From an uncultured Bradymonadales bacterium (GTDB taxonomy: Bacteria; Myxococcota_A; Bradymonadia; Bradymonadales; Bradymonadaceae): a stretch of DNA of 64,000 nucleotides. The stretch covers positions 68,223-132,222 of the forward strand of contig CAYMYJ010000012.1 of the NCBI GenBank assembly GCA_964394615.1, given 5' to 3'. Of the stretch, positions 6,526 to 44,100 are shown one piece after another; position 1 is the stretch's first letter; every line of letters begins with the position of its first letter. The notes under the pieces were generated by a model. That model was not told the DNA's origin. It was given only the letters and a program-made list of their open reading frames with translations, and made no database searches. A program made the position numbers and the translations under genes.

Positions 6526-6533
6526 GGGGATTT

Positions 6534-26718: not shown

Positions 26719-28257
26719 TCACAGCTTTGACGCGGTTTTGATTGGTGGCGCGAGAAACATCGCAGGGACGATCCCAATCAAAACGATGACTGCACCCACG
26801 ACAAAAGCGTCGCCAAATGCGGATACCGATGCCGTCATGACTGCATGTTTTACGACCAAGCCTTGGCTTATCAAGGCCGCATCAGCCGGGCCATAGCCCA
26901 AGTCTCGCATATGGGCCGTTAGACGGCCAGTGGTCAGTATTATCGCGGCAGATGTTCCGTCCAGGTTTTCCCCAACGATCGCGCGCCAAAACATCGTTCG
27001 ATGGCTCAGCACAGCGGCCAGCAATGCGATGCCGACGGAGCCCGATACCTGTTGGATTAGGCTTAACATCGACGCCGCCATCCCTGCCTTGACGGTCGGA
27101 ACGGAATTCATCGCCGCGGCCGAGACAGGCGTGACCAGAAGCCCAAGTCCAAAGCCGCGGATGAACATCGGCCCGAGAATCCCCCAGGTGCTCGTGTTCG
27201 GGTCGATATCTCGGTACATGAACATGAAGAGTGCGGTCAGCAGCAGGCCGACGATCGTCAATGGACGGGGGCCAATCACATCGAGCAGGCGGCCTGCAAA
27301 CGGAGACACCAAGCCAATCACAAGCGCGCCGGGCAACATCAATGCGCCGGCGCTCACCTCGTCGAGCCCCATCTGTTGCTGCATGAACAATGGCAGAAGG
27401 AACATTCCGCCATAGAGCGCGATCGACCGCACACACGTCACAATCATCGCTGCTGTAAACGACCCGTAGCGAAATAATGAGAGATCCAGAATTCGGATCT
27501 CAGACACGCTTTCAATCAGCAAGAACGCCACGAAAGAGAATGCCGCGACGAGTTCGCAGCCCACAATATAGGGGGAAAACCATCCCTCTGAGTTTCCTTC
27601 CGAGAGCGCAAGCAGCGCCGTAATCAAAAACGCGGTGAGCAAACCGAATCCGAGAAAGTCGAATCCTTTGGTTTTAATCTCTTTGGGTTTGTCGTGATTG
27701 AGCACGCGCAGCGCAAGAAAGAGCGCGATAATTCCAATCGGCAAATTGACGTTGAAAATGGATCTCCAGCCGAGCGTTTCGGTCAGATAGCCGCCCAGGG
27801 TTGGCCCGATAGCCGGTCCTAAAATCACCCCGACCATCCAGATGCCAATCGCCTTTCCACGTTCGGATGGATCAAAGACGTCAGCAATCATTGCCATGGC
27901 TGTGGGGGTGATTGCGCCTCCGCCAAACGCCTGAATCACGCGCGCGAAGACGAGGGCTTCTAAATTCCACGCGAAACCACAAAGCACGGAACCGATGACA
28001 AAAATGGCGAGGCTGATAAGGTAGAGCCAGCGATACCCGATGCGGTCGCGCAACCAGGCGGTCAGGGGCATCAATACCGCAAAACCCAGCATATAAGACG
28101 TGATCACCCATTGCACTTCGTCGACGCTCGCCCCAAACGACGACATGATATTTGGAATGGCGATGTTGACGATGCTCGCGTCGAGGGCCGACATCACGGT
28201 CCCGATCATGACAACGCCCAGGACTCGCCATTTGTAATTATCGTCGTCGGCTTTCAT
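26719..28257 (-). CDS. MFS efflux transporter, DHA2 (EmrB/QacA) family, 14-TMS type
   Basis: Likely start MKADDDNYKWRVLGVVMIG (the upstream part of the ORF is an Arg-rich read-through of the emrA-like gene). MFS motifs GxLxDRxGxR (LRDRIGYR) are present. Its ATG overlaps the stop of the HlyD gene. Confidence 0.85.
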   Translation of the reverse strand: MKADDDNYKWRVLGVVMIGTVMSALDASIVNIAIPNIMSSFGASVDEVQWVITSYMLGFAVLMPLTAWLRDRIGYRWLYLISLAIFVIGSVLCGFAWNLEALVFARVIQAFGGGAITPTAMAMIADVFDPSERGKAIGIWMVGVILGPAIGPTLGGYLTETLGWRSIFNVNLPIGIIALFLALRVLNHDKPKEIKTKGFDFLGFGLLTAFLITALLALSEGNSEGWFSPYIVGCELVAAFSFVAFLLIESVSEIRILDLSLFRYGSFTAAMIVTCVRSIALYGGMFLLPLFMQQQMGLDEVSAGALMLPGALVIGLVSPFAGRLLDVIGPRPLTIVGLLLTALFMFMYRDIDPNTSTWGILGPMFIRGFGLGLLVTPVSAAAMNSVPTVKAGMAASMLSLIQQVSGSVGIALLAAVLSHRTMFWRAIVGENLDGTSAAIILTTGRLTAHMRDLGYGPADAALISQGLVVKHAVMTASVSAFGDAFVVGAVIVLIGIVPAMFLAPPIKTASKL

Positions 28258-29459
28258 AACACGCGGATCCGTAACACCACGGATTGTCCCACTCGGAGGT
28301 CGCGTTCGTTGGGATCTAGCGCGACGCGAATTGGAATTCGCTGCACAACCTTCGTGAAGTTGCCTGCCGCGTTGTCTGCGGGAATGAGGGCGAATTGGGA
28401 GGCCGCATGGTGAGAGACGACCGAGACTCGGCCTTCGAGTTTTCCACCCTCGTCGAGCTCGATATCGACGTGTTGGCCTTCGTGAATCTGTCCAATCGAC
28501 GTTTCTTCGATATTGGCGTTGATCCAACATTGTTTCATGTCCGTGATAACCACGGCGGCCTGACCGGTTGCGACGTAGTCTCCCGGATCAGAAATCACCT
28601 TTGAGACGACGCCGTCGAGGCTGCTTCGCAAGGTCTTCTGGTCCAGGGCAAGCTGGGCGATCTCCAAATCGGCGTGGGCTTGTTTGGCGATGGAGCGGGC
28701 TTCTTCGATCTCTTCGCGTTTCAAGGCAATGCGTTCGGCACCGGCGTCGGCCTCCATTTGGCGCGCATGGGCTTGCGAGAGCTCTCCCCGCGCCATGGCT
28801 ACCGCCTCGGTACGAGTGCCGCGCGTGAGTTCGTCGAGCGTTGATTGGGCCTGTTTGACGGCTTCCTGAGTTTGAGAATCCAATGACCGCGCGTGCTCGA
28901 CCTGTTCCATTGTGACTACGCCCTGTTTTGAAAGCGATTCAGCGCGTGCCAGGGCTGCGGTATTTTCGGCTGCGCGCGCTTGTGCTGATGAGAGCTCCGC
29001 GCGAGCACGTGCGAGCTCTTCGGGACTTGCTCCGTGCACCATCAAGTCGACATTCGCTTTGGCGCGTACGATCCCGGCCTCTGCTCCTTTTTGCCCTGAA
29101 TTCACGAGTCGTTCTTCGAGCGCAAGCGTCGCTTCTGCGGCGCGGACCCTGACATTCGCCAAATTCAGCGTGGCCTCTGCCCGCTGAACGAGCGCTTTTT
29201 CATTCTCTGAATCAAGTCGGACCAGTACCTCACCGATTTGAACATATTGGCCCTCGGAAACCAGGATTTCCTCGACACGGCCACCGGATCCATTGGGTGC
29301 GATTTGCGCAACAGAAGTGGCGATGCGGGCGTCTTCTGTCGATATATAGGGGCGGAAGTGTATCCACCAAATCACGGTAATTCCGGCGGCAACGATCGCG
29401 AGCGCCAGGAGGCCACGTTGCACACGTTTATGTCGCAGCGGCTGCGAAATTGTACTCAT
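28254..29459 (-). CDS. HlyD-family membrane fusion protein (EmrA-like)
   Basis: N-terminal TM anchor, long coiled-coil (ATLNLANVRVRAAEATLALEERL...), C-terminal beta-barrel region. Its stop overlaps the emrB-like start, and its start overlaps the marR stop. Confidence 0.85.
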   Translation of the reverse strand: MSTISQPLRHKRVQRGLLALAIVAAGITVIWWIHFRPYISTEDARIATSVAQIAPNGSGGRVEEILVSEGQYVQIGEVLVRLDSENEKALVQRAEATLNLANVRVRAAEATLALEERLVNSGQKGAEAGIVRAKANVDLMVHGASPEELARARAELSSAQARAAENTAALARAESLSKQGVVTMEQVEHARSLDSQTQEAVKQAQSTLDELTRGTRTEAVAMARGELSQAHARQMEADAGAERIALKREEIEEARSIAKQAHADLEIAQLALDQKTLRSSLDGVVSKVISDPGDYVATGQAAVVITDMKQCWINANIEETSIGQIHEGQHVDIELDEGGKLEGRVSVVSHHAASQFALIPADNAAGNFTKVVQRIPIRVALDPNERDLRVGQSVVLRIRVL

Positions 29460-29893
29460 AATGGGTCCTCATCGGTTCCAACTTCGTCGATGATTTTCTT
29501 TGAGATTTTGGTGAACATTTTTCGTTCTTCATCACTCAGCACCGCGTCGATTCGGGCGGCAAACGTGTCATAAATGGCCATCAGTTCGTCGCAGGCGATT
29601 TCGCCTTCTGGAGTCAGTTGGGCTTCTTTCTGGCGTCGGTCTGATTCGCTGACCGTGCGCTCGACCCAGCCTCGTGATTCCAAAGTTTCCAATGAACGTG
29701 CGAGGGCGGCTGGGTCCTGGGTGAGCTTACGCGCAAGCGAGGCCTGCGAGTCGTGTCCACCTTGTCGAAGCTCGCGCAAAATCACGTATTGGGCAGTGCC
29801 TACATTATGGTCGCTCAGCGCGCCGCCTATGGCGCGCACCAGCGCGAGTCGGAGTTTTCTGAAGTCGTGCATTAAAGTCATTGAGGTATCCAT
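29456..29893 (-). CDS. MarR family transcriptional regulator (EmrR-like)
   Basis: Winged-helix pattern typical of MarR (...SQASLARKLTQDPAALARSLETLESRGWVERTVSESDRRQKEAQLTPEG). First gene of the marR-emrA-emrB-like operon. Confidence 0.8.
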   Translation of the reverse strand: MDTSMTLMHDFRKLRLALVRAIGGALSDHNVGTAQYVILRELRQGGHDSQASLARKLTQDPAALARSLETLESRGWVERTVSESDRRQKEAQLTPEGEIACDELMAIYDTFAARIDAVLSDEERKMFTKISKKIIDEVGTDEDPL

Positions 29894-29960
29894 TATTGAC
29901 GTGTCAACGATTATTCATGGACTAGTCAATGAATGGATGCGGGTCAATATTCCCGAGGTC
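29894..29960. promoter_or_regulatory. Candidate MarR operator/promoter in the divergent intergenic region
   Basis: Palindrome TTGAC-GT-GTCAA sits immediately upstream of the marR ATG, followed by repeated GTCAAT half-sites (tagtcaatgaatggatgcgggtcaatatt). Confidence 0.35.
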
Positions 29961-30076
29961 ACAAATTCGGGTGCAACGCCGGTACGTGACGATTTTGCGC
30001 CCGCTAATCGTCGATTGATTCGTGTCGACTTGTCGTGGGCTATGGCCCAGTATGTTGTGATTCATTTTCCAATTGC

Positions 30077-30922
30077 ATGGTCTTCATGGGTAATTTCCTA
30101 AATATTGCGCTGACCTTTCCTCCCGTCATCTTCTCATTTTTGCTTGTCGTGGTGGTCATCTATTGGCTGTCCGTGATGGTGGGGGTGCTCGATCTCGATC
30201 TCTTCGATCTTGATTTTGATTTGGACGTCGATATGGACGTCGATTTGGACGTCGATATGGACATGGGAGGCGCAGCGGAAAGTGCGGCGGACGGTGCGGC
30301 GGAAAGTGCGGCGGAAGGTGCGGCCGAGGGTTCGGCGGAGCACGGCGATACCCCCGGGCTAAATGGCATCCTTCTAGGCATCTATTCGTGGTTGAGCCTG
30401 GGCCGAGTGCCGATAACCATCACGGTCAGTGTTTTCACATTATACGCGTGGATTATGACTTTCAGCGGGGTCTACTACCTTGGCGCAAGTCTGCCGGTTG
30501 CCATCGGTCTTTTTGTTGGGGCGACCGCGGCAAGTCTTTTCCTAACAGGACCGACTGTTCGCCCCATGCGCGGGCTTTTCCACACCCATACCAAACACGG
30601 GCAGGAGACTCTGATCGGGGCATTATGCGTGCTTACAACAGGGCGAGTGGATGAAAAGTTTGGCCAGGCTCTATTCGATGATGGGGGCGCCGGGCTTAAC
30701 TTATTGGTGCGCTGTGACTCGCCCGAAAACGGGATAAAACGCGGCGATCGCGCATTGATCATCGGTTACGATTCGGAGACTCGACTTTATTATGTCGAGC
30801 CCTACGAAAATCTGGCTGGCCAAGAAACAAAGTTCGATTTTGAAACAAGACTAGAAGACGCAGGTTCGATGTCCGACGTGACGTTGAACGGCGACGCAAA
30901 TATCGGAGAAAAGAATGAATGA
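30077..30922 (+). CDS. NfeD/YqiJ-like inner-membrane protein (DUF1449-type) with C-terminal OB-fold and unusual poly-acidic insert
   Basis: N-terminal TM helices, C-terminal NfeD-type OB segment (GALCVLTTGRVDEKFGQALFDDGGAGLNLLVRCDSPENGIKRGDRALIIGYDSETRLYYV). Located directly upstream of the flotillin gene, as in E. coli yqiJ-yqiK. Start is the first ATG of ORF 30035..30922 and may alternatively be 30086. Confidence 0.7.
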   Translation: MVFMGNFLNIALTFPPVIFSFLLVVVVIYWLSVMVGVLDLDLFDLDFDLDVDMDVDLDVDMDMGGAAESAADGAAESAAEGAAEGSAEHGDTPGLNGILLGIYSWLSLGRVPITITVSVFTLYAWIMTFSGVYYLGASLPVAIGLFVGATAASLFLTGPTVRPMRGLFHTHTKHGQETLIGALCVLTTGRVDEKFGQALFDDGGAGLNLLVRCDSPENGIKRGDRALIIGYDSETRLYYVEPYENLAGQETKFDFETRLEDAGSMSDVTLNGDANIGEKNE

Positions 30923-33086
30923 AATAACCATTATGTGGCTGGTCGTGGGCGCTGTGGGCCTCCTGATAATCCTTGGGATCCCAGTCATGTTGAGCCGCTG
31001 GTACCGCAAAGTAGATCAAGGCCAGGTGTTGATCATCAATGGTTTAAGCGACACGAAAGCGGTCTTTACGGGCGCCTTTGTGCTGCCTGTAATTCATCGC
31101 GCCGAGGTCATGGATATTTCGGTCAAAACGATCGAGATCGACCGTAACGGAAAAGAAGGGCTGATCTGTAAGGATAATATCCGTGCGGACATCAAGGTGA
31201 CCTTTTTTGTGCGAGTTAATCAGACGCAGGCCGACGTGCTCAACGTCGCGCAGGCCGTGGGCTGTGCCCGCGCTTCCGACCCGAAAACCCTTGAACAACT
31301 TTTTGGGGCTAAGTTTTCAGAAGCGCTTAAGACGGTTGGCAAGCGACTTGAATTTGAAGACCTCTACAACGAACGCGACCAGTTTCGTGACGACAGCATA
31401 AACCTCATTGGAACTCAGCTTAACGGCTATTCCATTGAGGATGCTGCGATCGACTACCTTGAGCAGACCTCGGTGGAAGCGCTCGATGACATGAATATTC
31501 TGGATGCCCAGGGTATCCGTAAAATCACCGAATTGACTGCGTCGCAGCGGGTCCGCACGAATGAGCTTTCGAACCGTGCGAAACGTGACACAGGCAAAGA
31601 TGACCTCGAAACCAGCATGGCCATGCTCGAGTACGAGCGGCAGCAGGCTGACGCGGTGGCTCGTCAACGACGAGAGATCGAGTCCACCCAGGCTCGAGAA
31701 TTCTCGACGGCGCAAGAGATTAAGTCGCAAGAGCACGCCAAAGCAGAGCTGGCACGACTTGAATCGGAACAGCAGGTTGCCGTTCGGGCGATCAATAAAC
31801 AGCGCGAAGAAGAAGTGGCCACCAAGAATCGCGAACGTGTGTTGGTGGTCGAGACAGAGACGGTCGAGAAAGAGCGCGCGCTTCAAGTCATCGCTCGCGA
31901 ACGGGAAACCGACCTTCAGCGTTATGCGAAAGATAAAGAGCTCGAGAAAGAGCGTAAGGCGATCGCCGAGATTATTCGGGACCGTATTTCGGTCGACAAA
32001 ACCGTGGCTCAAGAAGAAGAAAACATCAAAGACCTGCGCGAACTCGCCGGCGCCAACCGCGATAAACAAACCGCGATTATCGAAGCCGAAGGAAAGGCGC
32101 AGCAGTCGCTCGTCGCGTCGATCAAGGCTGCGGAAGCCAATGAGGAAGTTGCGAAATTTGCGGCTCGCGAACGTATCCTGACCGCTGACGCCGAACTTGA
32201 TGCCGCCGACCGTGTGGCCAAGGCAAAAATCCGCACCGCCGAAGGCACGCAGGCCGAACTTGCCGCCTCGGGTCTGGCGAATGTCCGTGTCAAGGAGGCC
32301 GACGCAATCGCCACCGAAAAACAAGGGTTTGTCGACGCCAAGGTGTTGAAAGAGAAGATGACGTCCGAGGCCGCGGGCCGCGAAGAGCAGGGCATGGTCG
32401 AGATTCGTCTCACACAGAATCGTGCAGAGGCCGTGGAACGTGAAGGACTCGCTGCAGCCAACGTCCTGCGAGAAAAAATGCAGGCGCAGGCAGTGGGTAA
32501 CGAAGACCAGTTGATGGTCGAAGTTCGCGTCAAAGAAGCGTCTGCTCAGGCGATCGAAAAAGAAGGAATGGCTCAGGCCAAGGTGCTTCGCGAAAAGGCG
32601 GAGGCCGAGGCTTCAGGAAACGAGAAGTTGTCGATGGCAGCTGCGTTGGGCATCCGCGAACGTCTGGTGGCCGAGGCCGATGGTTTGGCCAAGAAGGCCG
32701 AAGCGATGAAGGCGTTGGACGCCGTAAGTCGAGACCACGAAGAGTTCCGCCTTGCCCTTGAGCACGAGCGAACACTGTCTATCGAACGCTTCAAAGCACA
32801 GGTCGATGTTGCGCGCGCTCAGTCTGAAGTCATGGGCGAGGCGTTTAAGACGTCCAATATCAACATCGTGGGTGGCGACGAAGCTTTCTTCAATCGCTTC
32901 ACCAACGCGGTATCCATGGGCCAGGCCGTGGATGGGTTCCTCGCAAATAGCGACGTGGCACGTCGGGCTTTGTCCCGCGTGCTAGGCGATGATCAAGCCG
33001 CTGATGTCGCTTCGGTGATTTCCGGGCTTGCGTCTAAAGGGCCATCGAAAGATGCGTCCAACACCGAAGTCGTAGACGAAGCCTGA
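30915..33086 (+). CDS. Flotillin / SPFH (band-7) family protein, YqiK-like, with extended repetitive coiled-coil
   Basis: N-terminal TM followed by SPFH domain (QGQVLIINGL...VFTGAFVLPVIHRAEVMDISVKTIEIDRNGKEGLICKDNIRADIKVTFFVRV). Long E/A/K/R-rich coiled-coil with ~33-aa internal repeats. GGAGAAAAG RBS. Overlaps the preceding gene by 8 nt. Confidence 0.85.
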   Translation: MNEITIMWLVVGAVGLLIILGIPVMLSRWYRKVDQGQVLIINGLSDTKAVFTGAFVLPVIHRAEVMDISVKTIEIDRNGKEGLICKDNIRADIKVTFFVRVNQTQADVLNVAQAVGCARASDPKTLEQLFGAKFSEALKTVGKRLEFEDLYNERDQFRDDSINLIGTQLNGYSIEDAAIDYLEQTSVEALDDMNILDAQGIRKITELTASQRVRTNELSNRAKRDTGKDDLETSMAMLEYERQQADAVARQRREIESTQAREFSTAQEIKSQEHAKAELARLESEQQVAVRAINKQREEEVATKNRERVLVVETETVEKERALQVIARERETDLQRYAKDKELEKERKAIAEIIRDRISVDKTVAQEEENIKDLRELAGANRDKQTAIIEAEGKAQQSLVASIKAAEANEEVAKFAARERILTADAELDAADRVAKAKIRTAEGTQAELAASGLANVRVKEADAIATEKQGFVDAKVLKEKMTSEAAGREEQGMVEIRLTQNRAEAVEREGLAAANVLREKMQAQAVGNEDQLMVEVRVKEASAQAIEKEGMAQAKVLREKAEAEASGNEKLSMAAALGIRERLVAEADGLAKKAEAMKALDAVSRDHEEFRLALEHERTLSIERFKAQVDVARAQSEVMGEAFKTSNINIVGGDEAFFNRFTNAVSMGQAVDGFLANSDVARRALSRVLGDDQAADVASVISGLASKGPSKDASNTEVVDEA

Positions 33087-33101
33087 AACGAGTGAACATC
33101 G

Positions 33102-36100
33102 ATGAATGAAGACAATCCGGTCGAGAGTCCGGCAGTCCAGACGAGCAGCTATGACTTGATCAGGCGTCGCCTGCTAAGTCAGGGGGAGGTCCTGAAGGAA
33201 CGCGCTGAAACGCTTAATACGCGCCGGCAGGAGTTCTTTGGGTCAACGCAGTTGACTGCCATCGGACAGGACCGTATCCGCACCGAGAATAATTGTATTC
33301 CTGTGGATATTGTGAGTGTTGGCGGGAAATTCTTGTTTGGATACAACGTCTTCATCGGATTGCGAAAACAAACTTCGGTGGAGGATGTCTTTTCTCTTCA
33401 CAGTTTTTCGCGTGACGAAAATGAAGGGATTATTCTTGATCCTGTGCCCCAGGATGCCACGCATTTCCTGAGCGACGCGAGGTTTTTGCAGGATTTTCAG
33501 GACCTGTACACGTACTACAAGGACGCAAATCTGCTGCAGCTTCGGCGAGTGGATGGAAAGCTCCTCGCGATTTTTCAGGTCGGGTCTTCGTTGACCGATG
33601 TGCGTGTATTGCGCTGGAGCGTCTCTCCAACGGGTGAAGTCAATTACATCGATAATTCTGGGGTGCGCGACCATACTTTGGTCCCATCGCATGATTTTGT
33701 GTGGAAAATTGCCGGAAGAGAGGACCATGTGGGTGGACGCCATCCACACGTCAATATTTGCGATAAAGTCTTTGTAGAAGCGGTCGGCGGAGACCTCACG
33801 ATCAAGATCGAGGATAATACTGAGGATGGGCTTGGGATCTATCGGGAACCCGTGGATGACCCCAATCAGGCCCTCGGCGATGCCGACATCCATTACGCCG
33901 ATCTTGGGAATTTAGTTCTTATTAAAATCCGCCCCTATCGCGAGGAAAAAACGCGGTATTTTGTTTTTAATACCGTGACGCAGTCCGTCGTTCGAATTGA
34001 TGCGATTGGGCAGTCATGTATTCAATTGCCAGAAGACCACGGGATTATTTTTCCGGGCGGTTATGTGCTCGCGGACGGTGAGCATCGTGGATTTGATGCG
34101 GATATCACCGGGATGCGTTTTGCGGAGTCGATTCGCTCGCCCAACGGTGAAGACGTCCTCTTTGTGTTCTACCGGCCAAAAGACGGTCGCTATATTTTGC
34201 TCGCCTATAACCTGATTCGAAAAGAGGTCCAAAACCCCATTCATTGTCACGGATATTCTCTTTTTAGTGACGGGGCGTTGATCGTTTTTCGGGCGTCTGG
34301 GGCCGAGCCGACGCGTGTTCACCCTCTGCAAATCTGGCAGAGCCCGTTTGTCAGCGACGAGCACGCGGCGGCCCAACCAAGCGATGGCTCGTTCTTGTCT
34401 CGGGTCGGAAATGCCGATTTGGTTCGCGGCATTTCCGAAGCGTTGACCGTGGTGCGCATGGTCAACAATCAGCAACCCACGATGGGCGTTTACGAGTCGC
34501 TCATCCAGGCCGTGCAGCGGACTCGGGATGGATATTTTTGGATCGATGATCCAGAGACCGAAGGGCTAGGGGACGTCTTTAAAGACATCGCAAAAACGGC
34601 GGAACTCATTATCGATGAGTTCGTAAAAGTGACCGAACTCAAGGCGAAGGCGTCGAAGGCCCTCGTCGATGTTGAAGCGCAACAGGAGTCGATTCTTCGC
34701 GATGTGCGATTTGACGATTGGAAAGAACTGCAGCGGTTCATCGACGGTCTAGGCCAACTGCACGCGCTCAGAGGGCGCCTGATCACGATGCAAGAGGTTC
34801 GCTACATCGATGCCGCACGGCTCAGCGAACTCGAAGCAGAAGTGGTCGAGAAATTCGACCATTTAAGCAAGGCAACCGCCGGTTTTTTGCTCGCTGACGA
34901 CTCGCTTTCTCCCTACAAAAAATCGATCGAAGATCTGGTCTCTGAAGTCCAAAAGGTCAAAGACACGGTGGAGGCAAAAAACCTTCGTGCCCGATTGGAT
35001 AAAATCGGTGAGGGGCTGTCGCTTTTGACCGATGTTGTGGCGGGTTTGCAGATCGAAGACCCGACAGCACGAACTCGAATTCTGGAAGGAATTTCCGAGG
35101 TGTTAAGTCTGCAAAACCGGGCGCGCGCCTTGTTGGACGGGCGGCGAAAAAGCCTGCTCGAGGCCGAGGGGCAAGCCGAGTTTGGCATTCAATTTCAACT
35201 TTTCGGTCAGACCGTACAGAGCGCCGTCAGCGTGAGCGATTCGCCCGAAAAATGCGAAGAGATGCTCACGCGGCTGATGATTCAGATGGAGGAATTGGAG
35301 AGCCGATTCAGTGAATTTGAGCCATTTTTGGTGCAGCTCGCTGAACAGCGAGAGACCGTCTATGAGGTCTTTGAAAATCGCAAACAAAGCCTGCTTGAGG
35401 AGCGCCGCCGGCGAGCGCACAACACGGTTCAAGCGGCCGAACGCATCATGGCTGGGATTGGGCGTCGAACCGCGCGCATGCAGGATATCGATACGCTAAA
35501 TGCCTACTTTGCTGCGGATCCGATGGTCCTTAAAGTGCGCGAGTTGGTCGCCAATCTTCGTGAATTGCAGGATCCGGTTGCGGCCGACGATGTACAAACC
35601 CAATTGCGGACGGCGCGAGACGAAGCGATTCGTTCCCTGCGCGATCGGCTCGACCTTTTTGAGGGCGGCGATGACGTGATTCGACTTGGGGAGCATCGCT
35701 TCAGTGTGAACACGCATGACGTGGAACTGACGATGGTTCCGCGCGACGGCACCATGATGTTGCACGTGACGGGGACCGAGTTTTTTGAACCCGTAGAAGA
35801 CCAAGAGTTTCAGAGCACTCGAGCATTCTGGAATCAAACTCTGGTTTCCGAATCGCCCGAAATTTATCGGGCGGAATATCTGGCGGCAACGGTTCTTTTT
35901 GACGCCGAATCCGGGGCCTCCGAACTGGGCCTGCAGGGGTTGCATCAGGCGTGTTTGCAAGAGCAGGGCTTGGCTCCCGTGATTCGCAAGGCCATCGAGG
36001 CTCGCTATGACGAAGGCTACGAGCGGGGCGTGCACGACGCCGATGCGGCACTGATTCTTGAGAAAGTGCTGGGCATGTATCTGACGAGCGGATTGCTCCG

Positions 36101-38150
36101 TTTTAGTCCTCGCGCCCGTGCATTGGCCACGCTTTTTTGGTCGCTGCGAGGCAAGTCTAGTTTTCAAACGACCTGGGGCCGCCGAGCGCAGAGCTTTGGC
36201 CGGCTCAGGAAAACGCTTGAACACCACGGTCCGCTTCGCGAGCTTGGTGAGGTTTTTGCCGCTGAACTCGAGACATTTGGGTTGGAGCTCGGCCTGTTGC
36301 AAGAAGACAGCTCTCAGATTTCGCTGGAAGCCGGCCATTATCTTGCGGAAGAATTGGTGGAAGTGACGCCTCATTTTGTGTTCAGCGATGACGCATCGAC
36401 CTTGCGGGCGGCCTTCCTAGAGCATCTGAATCGCGAAAATACCCTGAATGATTTTCGCGCTGATGTAGAGAAATTAAAGGACGAGGCTTCGGCGCGTTTC
36501 GGGCTTGTGGAAAGCTGGATCGAGGGCTTTGTCGGTAAGAATCCCCAGCTCTCTGGTCTGTTGCGTAGCGCGCCAGAGGTGGTCGCGCTCGTGATCATCG
36601 AGGAGACACTTTCTGTTCAATTTAGTTCGACGCGTGTTGATGTCGTGATTCCCAATATTTTGGGTCAACATCCGAGAATACTTGAACAAAAATTATCGAT
36701 TCGACTGGATGAGTTTCTGGCGAGACTGCGGTCCTTTGTGGATGTGCAGGTACCCGCGTACCGCGAGTATCGACGCCGCATGCACGAGTTGCTGATTACG
36801 GAGCGTCGCAGACTACGCCTGGCGGAACTCAAGCCTCAGGTCCTGAGCACTTTTGTAAGAAATCGCCTCATCGATGAAGTTTATTTGCCCTTAATCGGCA
36901 ATAATCTGGCCAAACAACTTGGGGCGCTTGGTGACGGAGGGCGTTCGGACAGGAGCGGTCTGCTTCTTTTGATATCGCCTCCAGGTTACGGCAAAACGAC
37001 GCTGATGGAATACATCGCCCAACGCCTGGGGCTCGTGTTTGTCAAAGTAAATGGGCCCTCGCTGGGGCATAGCGTCACGTCGCTCGACCCGGCAGAGGCG
37101 CCCAATGCGACGGCTCGGCAAGAGGTCGAGAAGATCAATTTGGCGCTCGAGATGGGCAATAATGTTTTGCTTTATCTCGACGATATTCAGCACACAGATT
37201 CGGAACTTCTTCAGAAATTTATTTCGCTATGCGACGCAACGCGTCGGATTGAAGGCGTCTGGAAGGGGCGAACGCGTACGTATGACATGCGTGGAAAACG
37301 TTTTGCCGTGGTGATGGCGGGTAATCCATACAACGAAGCAGGACAGCGCTTTCGTATTCCTGACATGCTCGCGAACCGGGCAGATACCTATAACCTTGGC
37401 GATATTCTGAATGGCCGCGAAGACGTCTTTGCGCTCAGTTATTTGGAAAATGCCCTGACCTCAAATCCTGTGCTCGCGCCGCTTGCGACTCGCGATCGAG
37501 CAGATCTGCAGCGATTTATCCGCATGGCGCAGGGAGAGTCGATTGCCTTGACGGAGATGGACCATGACTATTCATCGGTGGAGGCGGGCGAGATTATCGC
37601 TGTTTTTCAACGGTTGTTGGTGGTTCAAAACGTTTTGTTGATGGTCAATCAGGCCTATATCGCGTCAGCTTCGCAAGACGACGACTACCGTACCGAACCG
37701 CCCTTTCAGCTCCAGGGTTCCTACCGAAATATGGCTCGTCTGGCGGAGCGCGTCGTGGCGGCAATGAACGACGAAGAGCTCCAAGCGCTCATCGATGACC
37801 ACTATGTTGGGGAATCGCAGACGCTGACGAAAGGCGCGGAACAAAACCTTCTGAAATTGGCCGAGATGCGGGGACGAATGTCCGAGGAAGCCGCGTCGCG
37901 CTGGGTGACAATGAAACGTGAGTTCATGCGCCGAAACATGATGGGTGGTGCCGAAGATCCGATTTCGCGCGTTGCCGCGCCTTTGAGTGGCTTGGTGCAG
38001 AAGCTCGACGACATGCATGAAGCGCTTAAGGGCGAGCGTCTGGCCGCCGAAGTCGGTGCGTTACGCGAGGCGTTAGTTGCGGCGCTTGCCGAGGTGTCAA
38101 AGCCGCCAGAATCGACAGTTTATATGCGCCTGCCGCTCAAGGAGGAGTAG
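33102..38150 (+). CDS. Giant (1682 aa) flotillin-associated protein with C-terminal MoxR/AAA_5-class ATPase domain
   Basis: Starts 16 nt after the flotillin stop. Walker A LLLISPPGYGKTTL, Walker B VLLYLDDIQH and sensor-1-like VVMAGNPYNE match the AAA_5 pattern. The N-terminal ~450 aa are beta-rich, the centre is a long coiled-coil, and no signal peptide is present. Confidence 0.8.
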   Translation: MNEDNPVESPAVQTSSYDLIRRRLLSQGEVLKERAETLNTRRQEFFGSTQLTAIGQDRIRTENNCIPVDIVSVGGKFLFGYNVFIGLRKQTSVEDVFSLHSFSRDENEGIILDPVPQDATHFLSDARFLQDFQDLYTYYKDANLLQLRRVDGKLLAIFQVGSSLTDVRVLRWSVSPTGEVNYIDNSGVRDHTLVPSHDFVWKIAGREDHVGGRHPHVNICDKVFVEAVGGDLTIKIEDNTEDGLGIYREPVDDPNQALGDADIHYADLGNLVLIKIRPYREEKTRYFVFNTVTQSVVRIDAIGQSCIQLPEDHGIIFPGGYVLADGEHRGFDADITGMRFAESIRSPNGEDVLFVFYRPKDGRYILLAYNLIRKEVQNPIHCHGYSLFSDGALIVFRASGAEPTRVHPLQIWQSPFVSDEHAAAQPSDGSFLSRVGNADLVRGISEALTVVRMVNNQQPTMGVYESLIQAVQRTRDGYFWIDDPETEGLGDVFKDIAKTAELIIDEFVKVTELKAKASKALVDVEAQQESILRDVRFDDWKELQRFIDGLGQLHALRGRLITMQEVRYIDAARLSELEAEVVEKFDHLSKATAGFLLADDSLSPYKKSIEDLVSEVQKVKDTVEAKNLRARLDKIGEGLSLLTDVVAGLQIEDPTARTRILEGISEVLSLQNRARALLDGRRKSLLEAEGQAEFGIQFQLFGQTVQSAVSVSDSPEKCEEMLTRLMIQMEELESRFSEFEPFLVQLAEQRETVYEVFENRKQSLLEERRRRAHNTVQAAERIMAGIGRRTARMQDIDTLNAYFAADPMVLKVRELVANLRELQDPVAADDVQTQLRTARDEAIRSLRDRLDLFEGGDDVIRLGEHRFSVNTHDVELTMVPRDGTMMLHVTGTEFFEPVEDQEFQSTRAFWNQTLVSESPEIYRAEYLAATVLFDAESGASELGLQGLHQACLQEQGLAPVIRKAIEARYDEGYERGVHDADAALILEKVLGMYLTSGLLRFSPRARALATLFWSLRGKSSFQTTWGRRAQSFGRLRKTLEHHGPLRELGEVFAAELETFGLELGLLQEDSSQISLEAGHYLAEELVEVTPHFVFSDDASTLRAAFLEHLNRENTLNDFRADVEKLKDEASARFGLVESWIEGFVGKNPQLSGLLRSAPEVVALVIIEETLSVQFSSTRVDVVIPNILGQHPRILEQKLSIRLDEFLARLRSFVDVQVPAYREYRRRMHELLITERRRLRLAELKPQVLSTFVRNRLIDEVYLPLIGNNLAKQLGALGDGGRSDRSGLLLLISPPGYGKTTLMEYIAQRLGLVFVKVNGPSLGHSVTSLDPAEAPNATARQEVEKINLALEMGNNVLLYLDDIQHTDSELLQKFISLCDATRRIEGVWKGRTRTYDMRGKRFAVVMAGNPYNEAGQRFRIPDMLANRADTYNLGDILNGREDVFALSYLENALTSNPVLAPLATRDRADLQRFIRMAQGESIALTEMDHDYSSVEAGEIIAVFQRLLVVQNVLLMVNQAYIASASQDDDYRTEPPFQLQGSYRNMARLAERVVAAMNDEELQALIDDHYVGESQTLTKGAEQNLLKLAEMRGRMSEEAASRWVTMKREFMRRNMMGGAEDPISRVAAPLSGLVQKLDDMHEALKGERLAAEVGALREALVAALAEVSKPPESTVYMRLPLKEE

Positions 38151-38309
38151 TCGGTGGCGTCGGAAGGGCTGACGTCGAATTCGTTCAGACGTTGAAATCA
38201 GTCGCAGCGATTGGCGTAGATGCCAGCGACCAAGGTATCGAGAAAAAGCCAAAAAAAAGCTCGCCGAAAAGTTCCTCGACGAGCATTTAATGAAGAATTT
38301 ACAGTCGAA

Positions 38310-39119
38310 TTAGAAGTCAGGAACACAGGCACCTGCGGTGCCAGGTCCAAGCTCAAGGTCACAGATGAAATCTTGGCCGCATTCTTCGTTCAGACGGCAT
38401 CCAAACTGGCATGATCCACCGGAGCAAATTTCGTGGGATTCGCCGACGCTGGCGTTACATTGGCTGTCGGTCTCACAGCCTGTTTCCATAGGCATATCGC
38501 TGCCCACGCATTCCGAAATCTGTGCGCAATCGCCAGCCGCTGCATTGACGCAAGTGAGCAGGAGATTCACGTCTGCTGCAGCCTCGGCCGAGCATGCAGT
38601 CTTTGCTGCAGCAGCCTGATTGGCGGGAAGCAATTCGCACGTCACACCGGCGTCGATGATCGTCTCGCAAGCAGCCGATATACCGGTAGAGGTGTTGTTT
38701 GCCGTGTTGGTTGAAGTGTTGTTTGCCGTATTATTTGCCGTGTTATTTCCCGACTGAGTTGGAGTGTAAATCACGCAGTTCAAACAGGTTCCTGGACTTC
38801 CCATGGTGAGGTCACAGAACTGATTTGAGGCGCAGTTATTATCCGAGGTACATCCAACCGAGCAAGTAAGCTCTTCTGTGTTGCAGTACTGGCCTGCTTG
38901 ACATGAGAGACCTGCCTGCAGGCATTCAGTATCGCCCACGCGTCCGTCGAGGCCGCAAGCCTCGGTGGTGCCGGGTTTTACGAGCATCTCGCCGGAGGTA
39001 TTATTGGCGGCGACGGTATTATTACTGCTGGTATTACCCGAGCTTTTGGTTGCGTCGTCACCACATGCGACAGCCAGTAAAATTCCCGAAAACAAAACCA
39101 CTAACTTTTTCATCATCAT
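38310..39119 (-). CDS. Cys-rich secreted lipoprotein with N/T-rich low-complexity repeats
   Basis: MMMKKLVVLFSGILLAVAC lipobox. About 30 Cys in CxxxC/CxC arrangements. NTANNT(S/A) repeats. Lies 228 bp downstream of the SWIM gene on the same strand. Confidence 0.6.
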   Translation of the reverse strand: MMMKKLVVLFSGILLAVACGDDATKSSGNTSSNNTVAANNTSGEMLVKPGTTEACGLDGRVGDTECLQAGLSCQAGQYCNTEELTCSVGCTSDNNCASNQFCDLTMGSPGTCLNCVIYTPTQSGNNTANNTANNTSTNTANNTSTGISAACETIIDAGVTCELLPANQAAAAKTACSAEAAADVNLLLTCVNAAAGDCAQISECVGSDMPMETGCETDSQCNASVGESHEICSGGSCQFGCRLNEECGQDFICDLELGPGTAGACVPDF

Positions 39120-39346: not shown

Positions 39347-41119
39347 CTATAATGCGCCTGCGCGGGCGAGCGAGGCTTCGGCGGCTTGCAGGTAGGTGGC
39401 GGCGGCGCACCAAGCGACGGCAAAGCCGACGGGGTCGGTTCGGTCGAGTCGGCCCGAAACATCGCGTTCCGCGAATTGAGCGCGTTCTAATAACTCGCTC
39501 AAAAGGTCGGCGGCGGTGTGCATGAATTGGGCGTTCAGGCGCGAAGCATCCCGTTTCACGGCGTGGGATGCGCCTGCATGGAACACAAAACGTCCGCCTT
39601 GTACGACACTTGAGACCCGTTGGCGCAGCGCGTGAAGAGGGTCTTGGATACCTTCTCCTTGCATCTCGACGTCGACGGGGTGTTGCGAGAGCACGCCTAG
39701 ATGTTCGGGCTTCAAAGTGTCGAGGCCCAAATTCATCAATCCGCCAACATCGTCCGGGAGGTTCAGCGTGCGCTCTGCTTCTGGTGCGGCATAAATTGCC
39801 AACGCATTGAATCCATCGCGGGCGTCGTCCGAGCGGCGTGCAACAAAAAGCGCTTCGAGGCCAGCCGCGCGTCCCAATAATTTCAAGTTTGCCAGGAATT
39901 TTAATCCCGCGCTTGTGGTGGGCGGCTGCAGCCGAATCGCACGGCCCGTGGCGGATTCTTGGACAATTAAATTCTCGCCATGAACTCCCACGACCACGGC
40001 ACGGAAAAAGACCAGGTCGTCGCCTGCGCGGCGGTCAAAAAGCTGACCGGAGGTGAAGGAGCGCGCCAGTTGTTCATCAAACGGTTCCTTCCACATCGGC
40101 CAATCCGCGACGGGCGTGCCTTTGAGTGTCACCGCTTTTACGGCTTTTCCGCTGCCCAGACGGCCATCATCGCTGCCTGTGGCCCCTTGCAAAAGTAGTC
40201 CTCCGCGGCAAATGGCGCGGGGAGCCGACTTCACATCGCCGATCGAAACGCCACCATCGTAGGCGCCAAGTGCTCGCGAACCGTTGCCTGGGGCGACGTC
40301 GGAGAGGGTCCAGAAAACGCCGTCTGGGTCGGCCAGATAGGTGACGGTGCCTGCGTAGCCGGTTTTGGTGAGGATGGGGTCTACCAAAATGCCCGTGAGC
40401 TTCTTTGAGCCGACATCCCGGTACTTGCGCCGAGCCGTGCCCACAAATCCACTGGCGTCGGTTTCAGGCTGCGAAAGCGCATGAGCGACTGTGACCAATT
40501 CACGAAATTCCAGGAGCAGTCGGTCGCGGTCGAAGGCAGGTGCCCCTTCGCGGTACATCCTGATTGATTCGGCGACACGCAGTCCTGCTGCCGACATGCG
40601 GTGTAGCCCATGAATTCGTGCCGAGTGAACGGCCCTTAATAATTCGTTGGAGACCGTCAGGCTGGCATTTGCTGCTCCGCGTTCCAATAGGCGTCCGGCG
40701 GCGCGAAGTGCGACTTCGGCTGCTGCCCTGGCTGCAGGCTCAATCGTCGTGATTGGCTCCTCATCTAACTCCTCCGTAGGCGTGCTTGTTTGTGCGCCAT
40801 CGGCGTTGTTTTCCTCGGAGGTTTCTGCGGAAGCATCGCGTAATGGGAGCGCGTGAATTACAGCAAGGACATGAAGGCAGCGTGGGCTTAAAAGGCATGA
40901 GCACTGCACTAAGTCAGTTGCGCCAATGGCGCCCCCAGATGCCACGGAAAGAGTGACCTTTTCGGTGCCCGTGTCGATTTCCCATGAAGCTTCCTGTGCG
41001 ACCCAGGTCCATGCCTCGGAGAGCTTGGGGTCGGCGTCCAATTTCTTCTGGATTCGGCCAGGCGCGGCTTCAGTCAAAGTCGCCACCACCAGCGGGTCGA
41101 TGAACGGTCGTTGAGTCAT
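39347..41119 (-). CDS. SWIM zinc-finger family protein (YehQ-like)
   Basis: Canonical SWIM CxCx(n)CxH motif: CSCLLSPRCLH near residue 75. 590 aa, similar to E. coli YehQ (~610 aa). Its ATG overlaps the stop of the upstream VWA gene (ATGA). Confidence 0.7.
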   Translation of the reverse strand: MTQRPFIDPLVVATLTEAAPGRIQKKLDADPKLSEAWTWVAQEASWEIDTGTEKVTLSVASGGAIGATDLVQCSCLLSPRCLHVLAVIHALPLRDASAETSEENNADGAQTSTPTEELDEEPITTIEPAARAAAEVALRAAGRLLERGAANASLTVSNELLRAVHSARIHGLHRMSAAGLRVAESIRMYREGAPAFDRDRLLLEFRELVTVAHALSQPETDASGFVGTARRKYRDVGSKKLTGILVDPILTKTGYAGTVTYLADPDGVFWTLSDVAPGNGSRALGAYDGGVSIGDVKSAPRAICRGGLLLQGATGSDDGRLGSGKAVKAVTLKGTPVADWPMWKEPFDEQLARSFTSGQLFDRRAGDDLVFFRAVVVGVHGENLIVQESATGRAIRLQPPTTSAGLKFLANLKLLGRAAGLEALFVARRSDDARDGFNALAIYAAPEAERTLNLPDDVGGLMNLGLDTLKPEHLGVLSQHPVDVEMQGEGIQDPLHALRQRVSSVVQGGRFVFHAGASHAVKRDASRLNAQFMHTAADLLSELLERAQFAERDVSGRLDRTDPVGFAVAWCAAATYLQAAEASLARAGAL

Positions 41120-44100
41120 GCTCGCCCCTTAATCTTGTCGCCAACCCAGCGGGCCATTTCGAGCGGAGTCAGTGCGGCGACCGGCATGCCGGCAGCGACA
41201 CATAACGACGCGATGGCGTTGTTGTAACGGGGTTTTCCGGAATCATCGAGTGCTGCCAAGCCGAGTGCGTGAACGCCGGATTCGACCAACGCGCGAACCT
41301 CGTGAACCAGTCCATCGACGCCCCAGCCTTCTTCAAAGTCGGTAACCAGTGCCAAAATAGTTCGGTTTGGAACGACGATATGTTCGCGGGCATAACGAAG
41401 AGCTTTGGCGATATGCGTGCCGCCGCCGACCTCGACTTCAAGCAAGAGCGAGAGCGGATCCACTGCTTGTTCGGTCAGGTCGATGACCTGCGTGTTAAAG
41501 GCATAAAATTGAACGCTTACCGAAGGTAAGGATTGCAGAATAGCCGCCATGATTGCTGCATAAATTACCGATGCCGTCATCGACCCAGAAACGTCGACGA
41601 CAAGCACGACATGCCAATCCAGGGATCGTTTAGCGCGTGTTTTAAAATAAATTCTTTCCGGAACAACGCGACGTGTGCCGTCTTCGAGTTCTCGCAGGCG
41701 GTCCAGATTGGCACGCACGGTTCGTTTTAGATCGATAGGGCCGCCGGGTCGGCGGGTGGGGGCAGGTGTCGCAAGTCCAGTGAGAGCGGGTTGAAGTCGG
41801 ACGGCCAGTTCTTTGACTAATTGGTCTACAACTTTGCGAATGAGGGCTCTTAATTGCCCTAATTGGCCGTCGGAAAGTCCGCCTTTTAGGCTCAATAATG
41901 ATTCAAGTAACTCGACCGATGGGGCGATATTTTCGCCATCGAGTTCGAATGCAGCAGTGGGATAGCCGTGTGTAATGGCGGTTGCTAGCACTTCTTCGCG
42001 TACTTTTTCGCCAAATAGATTTTGCAGTTCGTCGGCCCATTCGCGAACGTTTGGGAAGGCTTCTTCTTTTCCGCCTCCGCCTCCCAGTCCGCCGCGCGAG
42101 CCTTCTCCTTCGCCGCCTCCATAAAGTTGTTCAAGCGCCCGAGCTGCCTGACCCGCCATTCCCGTCATTTTTTCGCGTTCTCGCCCCAGAATCAGTTGCC
42201 ATCGCTCCAAGGCGGTGATGCGCAAATCCTTAGCTTCGGTGCGCTCTTGCTGGTCCTCAAGGTCGTCGTAGGTTCGACGCGGCGGGCTGAGGAATTTTGC
42301 GGCTGCGTCGCGGCCGGCTTCGTCTGCGACTTTCCAGATCCCCAATAATTCGGGGTCTTGATTCAGCACAAACGCGCCGTGGTGACCGCGTGGATCCAGG
42401 GTTTGCGGAAAGGCATCGGACAAAGACGCCAGCAGGCGTTCTCGAGCGGCGGCTGAAAGACCATCGAATCCACCGCGAAGGGCCGGCAAGACCGCTAAAA
42501 ACTCGGTGTCGTCGATCGTTTCGATTTGTTGGGAAAGCTGGTCCAAAAGGGTCGCGTCGTTTTCCAGCAGTGATGAGGCCGCCTTTAAAAGACCGCGCAG
42601 CCGCAGCGAAAGGTCGCGCCGGGTCTCGGCATTATTGGCCGAGATAAGCCAAGACACGGTCGTTTGGCCAAAGGCTTCGGCATCGACTTTGCCCATCACG
42701 ACTTGTGCTGCCAGGCCCGCGCCCTGCATCACCGGGGAGCCTTCACGAGCGAAAAGTTCGGCAAGCCAACTCAGGCGGCCGGTTCCCAGTTCGTCGTCGG
42801 CGGGTTGCAGTTCTGCAAGCGCTACGACTTCCATGAAATCGACAACATCATTCAGGTCGTCGGAGCCGGTGAGACCTTCGCATGCGCGAATGGCAGCGGC
42901 CAAAAATGATGCGCGTGGGAGGTTTGGTAGGTCCAGATTCTGGGCATCCAGTCCCGGGAAATGCCCCTGATGCACTGCTTCCAAGAAGCGCAGTCCATCC
43001 AAAATTCGCCGCAAGTCGGCGATGGGCAGGTATTCGGTGTGCAGCAGGTGAATCGATTCTGAAGTCAGGTCGGGCAGGGCGGCGCGGGCTGCCTTTTCGG
43101 CGACGGCGAGCATGGCGCGCGCGTCCCAGGTGTCTTCCTTTGCGTCGCGGGCTTGTTGCCATTTAATCGCACCTTGGGCGGCCTGCTCAAGCGTGACGCC
43201 CCAGATGCCGGCGAGCTCGATCATGGCATCGGTCGAGACCTCCCATTTGATGTCCCAAAGGCGTGTCAGGGTTTCGGTGGCGCCAATGGCCTGTCCGGCA
43301 GCCTGGTTTCCGTACGGAATGCCGCAAACGTCCAGTCGTTCAAGCGTGACGTGGCGTCGCATGTCTTTGTCGCCTCGCAAGGGATCGAGGCGCAACGTGT
43401 CTTTGCTGGCTCCGCCGGGGCCTGGAAGACCGAGGTCGCTGAGCGTTTCGAGGACGTGCGGATAGAGCCCGCTTCGCGGTGTGTTTGGCGCCAGGCGTCC
43501 GCGTTCTCGGCCCACCATCACACGTTCAATTGATTTTGCGAGTACTCGCCCACGGCCAAGTATTTCACCTCGCGCCATGGCAGCCTGCATGGCTTCGAGA
43601 ACCTCAAGCCGTCCGGGAGCAGGAAGGCCGCGCAGACTGGCGAGGTCGAGCGCCATTTGGGTTGCGGCTGTGGCGTCGGGCACACCCGAAACATGGCCCT
43701 GGGAGCGGAGGTCACGCGACACGGCAACGATGACGTCGGCGGCCAAATCTCGCACAGCATCTGGCGTCCTAAGAGCGTGCATGACGCGCTGTTGCCACAT
43801 CGGGTCGCGGATGCCGGCTGGGTACATCGAGCGCGAATCCAGCAATTCAAACGCATACGGAATTAAGGACGTAATCATTTTAGCCGGAGCGTCCGTCGGG
43901 GCCGGCGTGTCGCGGCCAATCATCTGAGGTTGTGCCAGAAGTGCTGGTGCATGAAATGCTCCGATAATTACGGCGACTTTTTTATCGTCGTAGCCACCGG
44001 CTTCTTTGATGACGGCGCGCATGCGTGATTCACGAACGGCATCCAGGCTTGGGATGGCGTCTTGCAGGTGTCGATCGCGTCGCAACGCCCAACCCAAATA

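Follow-up and report, generated by a model that had tools for sequence, protein, structure and literature searches.

Can a flotillin, a protein usually treated as a passive, ATP-independent membrane organiser, have a dedicated ATP-driven partner? The question is raised by a locus in a 64,000-nucleotide (nt) stretch of DNA from an uncultured Bradymonadales bacterium (contig CAYMYJ010000012.1; the whole stretch is referred to as the window), in which three co-directional plus-strand open reading frames (ORFs), named g1, g2 and g3, occupy positions 30077-38150:

30077..30922, plus strand: g1, a YqiJ/YuaF-like (BacC-like) inner-membrane protein of 281 amino acids (aa) counted from the ATG at 30077 (ORF, hydropathy, BLASTP)
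30915..33086, plus strand: g2, a flotillin (SPFH2/YqiK-like; BacD/PaFlo3 orthologue) of 723 aa (ORF, Pfam, BLASTP)
33102..38150, plus strand: g3, a soluble giant ATPase (DUF3686 family; BacE/PA3728 orthologue) of 1682 aa (ORF, Pfam)

A preliminary description, made from the DNA letters alone, had placed a YqiJ-like gene, a flotillin gene and a giant ATPase gene in one tight unit, and this holds: g1 and g2 overlap by 8 nt, and the g2 stop is separated from the g3 start by 15 nt (and not by 16 nt as given there). A consensus scan of the g2-g3 junction found neither a plus-strand sigma-70-like site nor a terminator-like hairpin. As for a separate strong promoter of the ATPase gene, which that description had raised, no promoter-like site lies in the 15-nt gap, and the equivalent junction of Pseudomonas aeruginosa is co-transcribed (PMC10948618). 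The ATPase family comprises more than 6,400 homologue clusters at 90% identity, and full-length identity of g3 across phyla is 45-59% over 1650 aa; for these reasons we regard g1-g2-g3 as real genes and not chance ORFs.

Next, we asked how constant the arrangement is. The locus scan used one genome per species and returned at least 568 matches, the best 80 of which were examined together with two further loci, giving 82 loci from Myxococcota, Actinomycetota, Gamma-, Beta- and Zetaproteobacteria, Planctomycetota and Acidobacteriota. Linkage was scored by tblastn of the window g1 and g2 against the related loci, because in high-GC loci antisense ORFs had skewed a clustering based on ORFs. Every locus that offers at least 2.6 kb of upstream sequence (77/77, from at least six phyla or classes) has a same-subfamily flotillin gene on the same strand 5' of the ATPase gene, indicating that the arrangement is conserved across phyla, as had been proposed; an ATPase gene independent of flotillin genes was not encountered among these 77. 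The distance between the two genes is at most 700 nt in 72 of the 77 loci and 731-750 nt, measured between alignment ends, in two more, and 2.1-6.5 kb of DNA intervenes in the remaining three (L071, L080, and L034 at 6.5 kb). A YqiJ-like homologue of g1 is found 5' of the flotillin gene in 68 of 72 loci. The partnership is spread over hundreds of species, among them P. aeruginosa, Myxococcus, Xenorhabdus and relatives of Streptomyces, with Bradymonadaceae and Persicimonas as the nearest named relatives of the window module. The three-gene module is widespread and apparently laterally spread.

Two of the insertions between the flotillin and ATPase genes, from Lampropedia and from the Zetaproteobacteria, span L071:6500-9941 and L080:8003-9903; by Pfam, one locus has NYN, nucleotidyltransferase and alpha/beta hydrolase genes and the other two PD-(D/E)XK transposase-family genes. 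Since mobile or toxin-antitoxin-type genes sit at the flotillin-ATPase junction in L071 and L080, this junction tolerates insertions. An ORF of about 79 aa with sub-threshold TerB/EF-hand-like similarity also lies between the two genes in some Gammaproteobacteria (L026:9604-9843 and L051), and the same TerB-like ORF is found 3' of the ATPase gene in L036 and L057.

The homologue of g3 in P. aeruginosa (P0145, i.e., BacE/PA3728; 1746 aa, 3,222 member sequences) is 50% identical to the window ATPase over 1641 aa, and their alignment has just 15 gap columns. Gene order at the P0145 locus is DUF2170, PspA, a 213-aa protein, a 688-aa protein, the DUF3686 ATPase, PLD, YaeQ, RecJ and an M4 peptidase; with recJ taken to be PA3725 and lasB PA3724, the genes from DUF2170 to PLD are PA3732 to PA3727. 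Given also that g1 is 32% identical to BacC/PA3730 (E 7e-35) and g2 is 48% identical to PA3729 (BacD/PaFlo3) over 673 aa, we consider, on the strength of these alignments, g1-g2-g3 to be orthologous to bacC-bacD-bacE. Compared with the complete bacABCDEF cluster (PA3732-PA3727; PA14_16140-16200, a 'biofilm-associated cluster' or Psp-like operon), the window has the BacC, BacD and BacE counterparts in the same order and orientation and lacks bacA (DUF2170/CesT-like), bacB (PspA/IM30) and bacF (PLD); a divergent MarR-HlyD-MFS operon lies upstream instead.

The bac genes are co-transcribed and co-regulated: reverse transcription PCR (RT-PCR) gave products across every bacABCDEF junction including bacD-bacE, placing them on one transcript, and the BacB-F proteins rise jointly by 6-13.5-fold in a bacA mutant (Wallart et al. 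2024; PMC10948618). Membrane-related stresses induce the system; PA3731, which is PspA-like, is induced by osmotic shock and is required for biofilm and virulence (PMC2587700). PA14_16180 (PA3729) has been described as the flotillin PaFlo3 (PMC13086221), and PA3728 (listed as 'ATPase') is among the genes recurrently mutated in cystic-fibrosis isolates (PMC8190622). An eLife paper on Arc reports PA3729 only as a pull-down background protein, a 2009 survey of SPFH proteins noted the giant SPFH2 flotillins and left out the extra operon genes, and a search of the accessible literature for DUF3686/PF12458 returned nothing.

Although the preliminary description had presented the ATPase as an unusual and unreported third partner of flotillin, the operon class had already been described by comparative genomics (Ravi et al., mSystems 2024, preprint 2020; PMC11237479), in addition to the P. 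aeruginosa bacCDE genes. That study lists an operon of CesT/Tir-PspA, flotillin, a three-transmembrane (TM) YqiJ/YuaF protein and a beta-propeller-coiled-coil-AAA+ protein, describes PspA-less abbreviated forms and a PLD protein that joins the operon in some Proteobacteria, and proposes roles in sub-membrane dynamics; its main text presents neither a structure nor an AAA+ clade nor linkage statistics. The window has the same component list with g1-g2-g3 co-directional, minus the dyad of CesT-like DUF2170 and PspA, and is a PspA-less abbreviated form. The flotillin-ATPase linkage is therefore already known from a comparative-genomics note and an RT-PCR result, and the window holds a further orthologous copy and not a new kind of system. 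What is added here is the assignment of the ATPase to the MoxR class, its architecture of propeller and fixed-length coiled coil, the 77/77 linkage and the orthology with BacE, the last of which gives a tractable model for the hypothesis set out below.

To describe the ATPase, we combined Pfam searches, a conservation profile and AlphaFold2 (AF2) models, which divide g3 as follows:

33192..34538, plus strand: residues 31-479, N-terminal helix and beta-propeller (DUF3686; Pfam E 9e-203, AF2)
34359..35642, plus strand: residues 420-847, long helical hairpin/coiled-coil region including DUF7902 (AF2 helices 437-847)
35724..36941, plus strand: residues 875-1280, middle domain (AF2; no Pfam match at E<=1)
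36942..37421, plus strand: residues 1281-1440, MoxR-class AAA+ core
37422..38021, plus strand: residues 1441-1640, AAA+ lid and conserved C-terminal helical domain, with a variable tail after 1640 (AF2, conservation profile)

Hydropathy gave no convincing TM segment in g3. The AF2 model of residues 1-1200 has a mean predicted local distance difference test score (pLDDT) of 86.5, in agreement with the earlier description of about 1250 aa of beta-rich and then coiled-coil sequence; that of residues 841-1682, built from a 41-sequence alignment, has a pLDDT of 81.6. The AAA domain had been called the only recognisable module of the protein, which is not the case, as DUF3686 and DUF7902 (residues 600-684, nt 34899-35153, E 4e-27) also match. 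The strands of the propeller run from residue 52 to residue 413, mostly at pLDDT above 90, and the modelled N-terminal fold is a propeller followed by helices. Foldseek matches to this part were propellers or proteins that combine a propeller with helices, and included Ski8, CyRPA, the propeller of a trilobed protease, the clathrin heavy chain and a nuclear-pore chain; a coat-protein reading of the N-terminus, drawn from the clathrin, nucleoporin and Elongator matches, was rejected at template modelling scores (TM-scores) of only 0.07-0.12. The N-terminal domain forms 756 clusters at 50% identity, and in full-length family members (proteins of about 1600-2000 aa) DUF3686 is always N-terminal. 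A disordered linker connects the helical hairpins to the middle domain, which in the AF2 model comprises a small beta element (876-897), a domain of helices (923-1166) and the linker that leads to the AAA module.

The ATPase module of g3 carries a Walker A motif GYGKT (K1298), a Walker B motif LYLDD (D1360/D1361), a beta-hairpin before sensor 1 (residues ~1382-1395), the sensor-1 residue N1408 and a putative Arg finger, R1426; none of the positions of the two Walker motifs, sensor 1 or the Arg finger varies in the family alignment. The motifs quoted in the preliminary description (LLLISPPGYGKTT, LLYLDDIQH and VVMAGNPYNE) are all present and fall in invariant columns. AAA_5 matches the isolated C-terminus with 33.9 bits against a cut-off of 22, and the closest structural relatives of the AAA_5-type core are MoxR proteins; sequence searches of the PDB with g3 returned matches at the level of Walker A only. 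On these features the module is of the MoxR class of AAA+ proteins, for which a hexameric ring and ATP hydrolysis would be predicted. Mean identity is 83% in the AAA core, the coiled-coil region is invariant in length with zero gaps among 12 diverse members, and the C-terminal part is 60% identical without gaps up to residue 1640, after which homologues carry large insertions in the tail. The invariant coiled-coil length and the conservation of the core fit a part of a large assembly of fixed geometry. Separately, the middle domain contains a motif, RYDEGYERGVHDAD (residues 968-981; nt 36003-36044), that is mostly invariant across phyla; in 100 sequences E971, G972, Y973, R975, H978, D979 and D981 never vary, and the motif could serve catalysis or bind a metal or a partner.

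The flotillin assignment of g2 rests on a Band_7 match that covers residues 32-175 (nt 31008-31439) and scores 48.8 bits, above the cut-off of 23.6 (E 1e-12); the domain is directly preceded by a single hydrophobic segment (residues 1-30, hydropathy) as membrane anchor and followed by a coiled coil of about 400 aa rich in A/E/K (fraction of A/E/K/R/Q/L 0.6-0.73 over residues 241-600) and a C-terminal tail. BLASTP aligns it with Escherichia coli YqiK at 27% identity over 422 aa (E 1e-32), in tblastn it is 42-58% identical to its counterparts in the 80 related loci that gave a match, and no homologue of solved structure was found by sequence. Because a basic SRWYRK stretch follows the single N-terminal anchor, the positive-inside rule predicts that the bulk of g2 is cytoplasmic, which would place it in the same compartment as the soluble ATPase.

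For g1, the preliminary label was NfeD/YqiJ-like. The YqiJ half stands on a collinear pairwise BLASTP alignment with E. coli YqiJ (24% identity over 179 aa, E 2e-4), the architecture of about three TM segments (hydrophobic segments 6-45, 111-129 and 134-159) and the gene's position, and we find 'YqiJ-like' an acceptable label with weak sequence support; YqiJ_N itself is sub-threshold (E 0.025, 15 bits against a cut-off of 23), and g1 reaches no Pfam threshold. The NfeD half is not demonstrated by sequence: 16 members of the g1 family gave no Pfam NfeD match at E<=1, and the family profile gave no NfeD, YuaF or YbbJ match among solved structures. By inspection of the alignment, the C-terminal 80 residues are conserved and beta-rich. 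One further feature lies in the loop after the first TM segment:

30188..30265, plus strand: acidic D-x-D repeat DLDLFDLDFDLDVDMDVDLDVDMDM of g1, residues 38-63 (translation)

The DLDLFDLDFDLDVDMDVDLDVDMDM repeat, which is followed by an A/E/G-rich low-complexity stretch, is much expanded in g1 relative to the other 15 homologues in the alignment, in which the D-x-D motif is short; the loop may bind cations or sense charge. Candidate starts of g1 are GTG 30035 (the mechanical ORF), ATG 30077 and ATG 30086, all with the end at 30922, and alignment with homologues favours ATG 30086 as the likely true start.

How does this unit compare with known flotillin and AAA+ systems? The E. coli yqiJ-yqiK (NfeD2-SPFH2) and Bacillus subtilis yuaF-floT pairs have the same order, a small three-TM gene and then a flotillin gene, but in E. 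coli K-12 the operon stops after yqiK and is followed by sib/ibs loci, whereas the window adds the giant ATPase. The window flotillin is also 170 aa longer than YqiK and belongs to a distinct subfamily. MoxR proteins (CbbQ, NorQ, RavA) are proteins of about 250-500 aa that act with a VWA-domain partner; in g3, by contrast, the same chain carries about 1280 residues (propeller, coiled coil and a further domain) ahead of the module, Walker B ends in DD and not DE, and the three-gene unit has no VWA gene (no VWA domain in g1-g3 by Pfam). Pairing of SPFH cages with AAA+ machines is familiar from HflK/C-FtsH, where the cage encloses the protease, and from prohibitin-m-AAA; in the module, too, an SPFH scaffold is coupled genetically to an AAA+ machine at the same membrane, and the mechanism proposed below is drawn from this analogy. 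The likeness has its bounds: unlike FtsH, g3 has neither a TM segment nor a protease domain (no peptidase domain by Pfam) and is of the MoxR class and not of the classical FtsH clade, and the bulk of the window flotillin is predicted to be cytoplasmic whereas HflK/C are periplasmic.

The account that we favour, and hold to be somewhat probable, is that the window carries an abbreviated bacCDE-type module whose ATPase docks on the flotillin scaffold and remodels this scaffold or its clients in envelope stress. An SPFH scaffold or cage, made of the YqiJ-like protein and the flotillin, would sit at the cytoplasmic side of the inner membrane, and the ATPase would oligomerise through its MoxR-type AAA+ modules, probably into a ring, and dock on the scaffold through its propeller and coiled-coil arm. 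ATP hydrolysis would then drive a remodelling in which the scaffold is assembled, opened or taken apart, or else the processing of membrane-protein clients that the scaffold holds, and the module would act within a response to envelope or membrane stress that, in Gammaproteobacteria, may be wired to a PspA/IM30 (ESCRT-III-type) protein and a CesT-like partner. Staphylococcus aureus FloA-NfeD is reported to stabilise unfolded membrane proteins without ATP (PMC11222466; see also PMC13086221); the ATPase could supply the energy-dependent step that complements such ATP-independent holding of clients. The most likely function of g3 would thus be to remodel, with ATP and under membrane stress, the flotillin scaffold or the clients that it holds.

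Several points weigh against this account. In a reverse test with two flotillins picked irrespective of g3, one locus (L086) had the full triad, but the flotillin of Beggiatoa leptomitoformis (L085:8001-10265; 53% identical to g2) was solitary, with neither g1 nor g3 within 8 kb, so that this is either a decayed locus or a flotillin able to work without the ATPase; it adjoins transposase-like genes. The linkage was checked in the best 80 of at least 568 matches, a sample of the less divergent members. Canonical MoxR ATPases work with a VWA partner and the module carries none, and by inspection an aromatic pore-loop-1 motif is not evident after 'NGPSLGH'. Having no aromatic pore loop, no protease domain and a MoxR-class fold without a VWA partner, g3 is doubtful as a classical threading unfoldase. 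Deletion of paFlo3 (bacD) in PA14 lowered biofilm by about 20% and had no other phenotype (PMC13086221), and the searchable literature holds no structure of the ATPase, no ATPase assay and no bacE mutant phenotype. The contact of the ATPase with the flotillin or the YqiJ-like protein, its oligomeric state, its substrate and its physiological role are what we infer from the observations above.

A narrower version of the favoured account, which we put forward tentatively as possible and not as probable, is that the DUF3686 ATPase is the dedicated ATP-driven assembly or disassembly motor of flotillin cages, with the rigid propeller-coiled-coil arm serving as a fixed-length ruler or clamp that matches the coiled-coil wall of the flotillin. 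If true, this would make it the first SPFH-scaffold remodeller known to consume energy, and flotillin 'microdomains' in these lineages would be actively cycled machines and not passive scaffolds. A near-obligate, conserved AAA+ partner of 1,700 residues implies an energy-dependent step in at least this flotillin subfamily.

Alternatively, the polymer on which the motor works could be PspA and not flotillin. The ATPase would then be a Vps4-like motor acting on a PspA/IM30 (ESCRT-III-type) polymer, flotillin and the YqiJ-like protein would be the membrane recruitment platform, and the PspA of the window organism would be encoded elsewhere. DUF2170 (CesT-like) and PspA_IM30 genes do lie directly 5' of the triad in 15-16 of the 82 loci, and PMC11237479 draws the ESCRT/Vps4 analogy for PspA-AAA+ pairs generally and suggests that abbreviated operons use a PspA encoded elsewhere. 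All of the PspA-linked loci, however, are from Gamma- and Betaproteobacteria, whereas the invariant partner of the ATPase is the flotillin, and we consider this alternative unlikely. Neither PspA nor DUF2170 homologues were found in the 64-kb window (best tblastn E 0.14 and 0.71). The weak PspA similarity (E 0.14), at 11564-11926, falls inside a 1645-aa ORF and is probably due to coiled coil; this ORF (11144-16081) and the adjacent one of 1555 aa (6522-11189), both on the plus strand, are giants without a Pfam match at E<=0.001.

A role in membrane-associated immunity or abortive infection against phage or interbacterial toxins, in which the ATPase would be the sensor or motor and, in some lineages, a PLD or rhomboid protein the effector, is less probable still. 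Phage infection co-induces PA3728-PA3732 in all infected samples (PMC12041424), but such induction is equally expected of a Psp-type envelope-stress response. Some Gammaproteobacteria have a PLD-family gene (9 loci) or a rhomboid gene (7 loci) 3' of the ATPase gene, examples of the rhomboid-family and PLD (HKD) genes being L026:15214-16470 and L084:13260-13952; both are absent from most loci and from the 64-kb window, where the next gene after g3 is convergent. The patchy distribution resembles lateral transfer, and some loci carry inserted mobile genes, yet the full-length conservation across phyla and the 83% identity of the AAA core are unlike fast-evolving defence genes. PADLOC had no match for g1 or g2, and its matches to g3 (E at least 4e-4) were confined to coiled-coil or P-loop/Walker A stretches. 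That g3 is a DNA repair ATPase for which the flotillin adjacency is irrelevant is hardly credible, since this reading draws on names inherited from NCBI and Pfam ('DNA repair ATPase' at NCBI, a name without support and misleading; 'ATPase involved in DNA repair'), on RuvB among the Foldseek matches and on weak matches to RuvB_N and RuvB that do not extend beyond the P-loop (about 40 residues, 18 bits against a cut-off of 282), and Pfam finds no DNA-binding, nuclease, SMC/RecN-type head or other repair domain in g3.

The preliminary description had also seen a recurring MoxR theme linking the triad to an operon at 39-46 kb. This operon (39347-45770, minus strand) encodes a 387-aa AAA_5 MoxR protein (weak bpMoxR match), a 1163-aa protein with DUF5682 and VWA_CoxE and a 590-aa protein without a Pfam family; the VWA protein, at 41116-44607, is thus part of a separate, convergent MoxR operon. 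Between it and the triad lies a 269-aa ORF without a Pfam family (38310-39119), convergent to g3. None of the 82 loci has counterparts of the genes at 38310-39119 and 39347-45770 beside the flotillin triad, and the MoxR protein and g3 have only Walker A in common (E 0.03). We therefore rejected a link between the triad and the MoxR-DUF5682/VWA operon, and the recurrence is coincidental.

On the 5' side, g1 is immediately preceded by the divergent operon of MarR, an HlyD-type membrane-fusion protein and an MFS transporter (26719-29893, minus strand), with which the g1 unit has an intergenic region of about 180 nt in common that contains no consensus promoter for g1. The consensus scan found no plus-strand sigma-70-like site anywhere across 29400-38900, hence none for the g1 unit, and no sigma-54 site (as proposed for bacA) was found 5' of g1. 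On the 3' side lies a single feature:

38259..38284, minus strand: G+C-rich hairpin and T-run between g3 and the convergent gene at 38310-39119 (terminator scan)

It was scored as the terminator of the minus-strand gene and, as the only strong hairpin, located 3' of g3, it marks the end of the three-gene unit.

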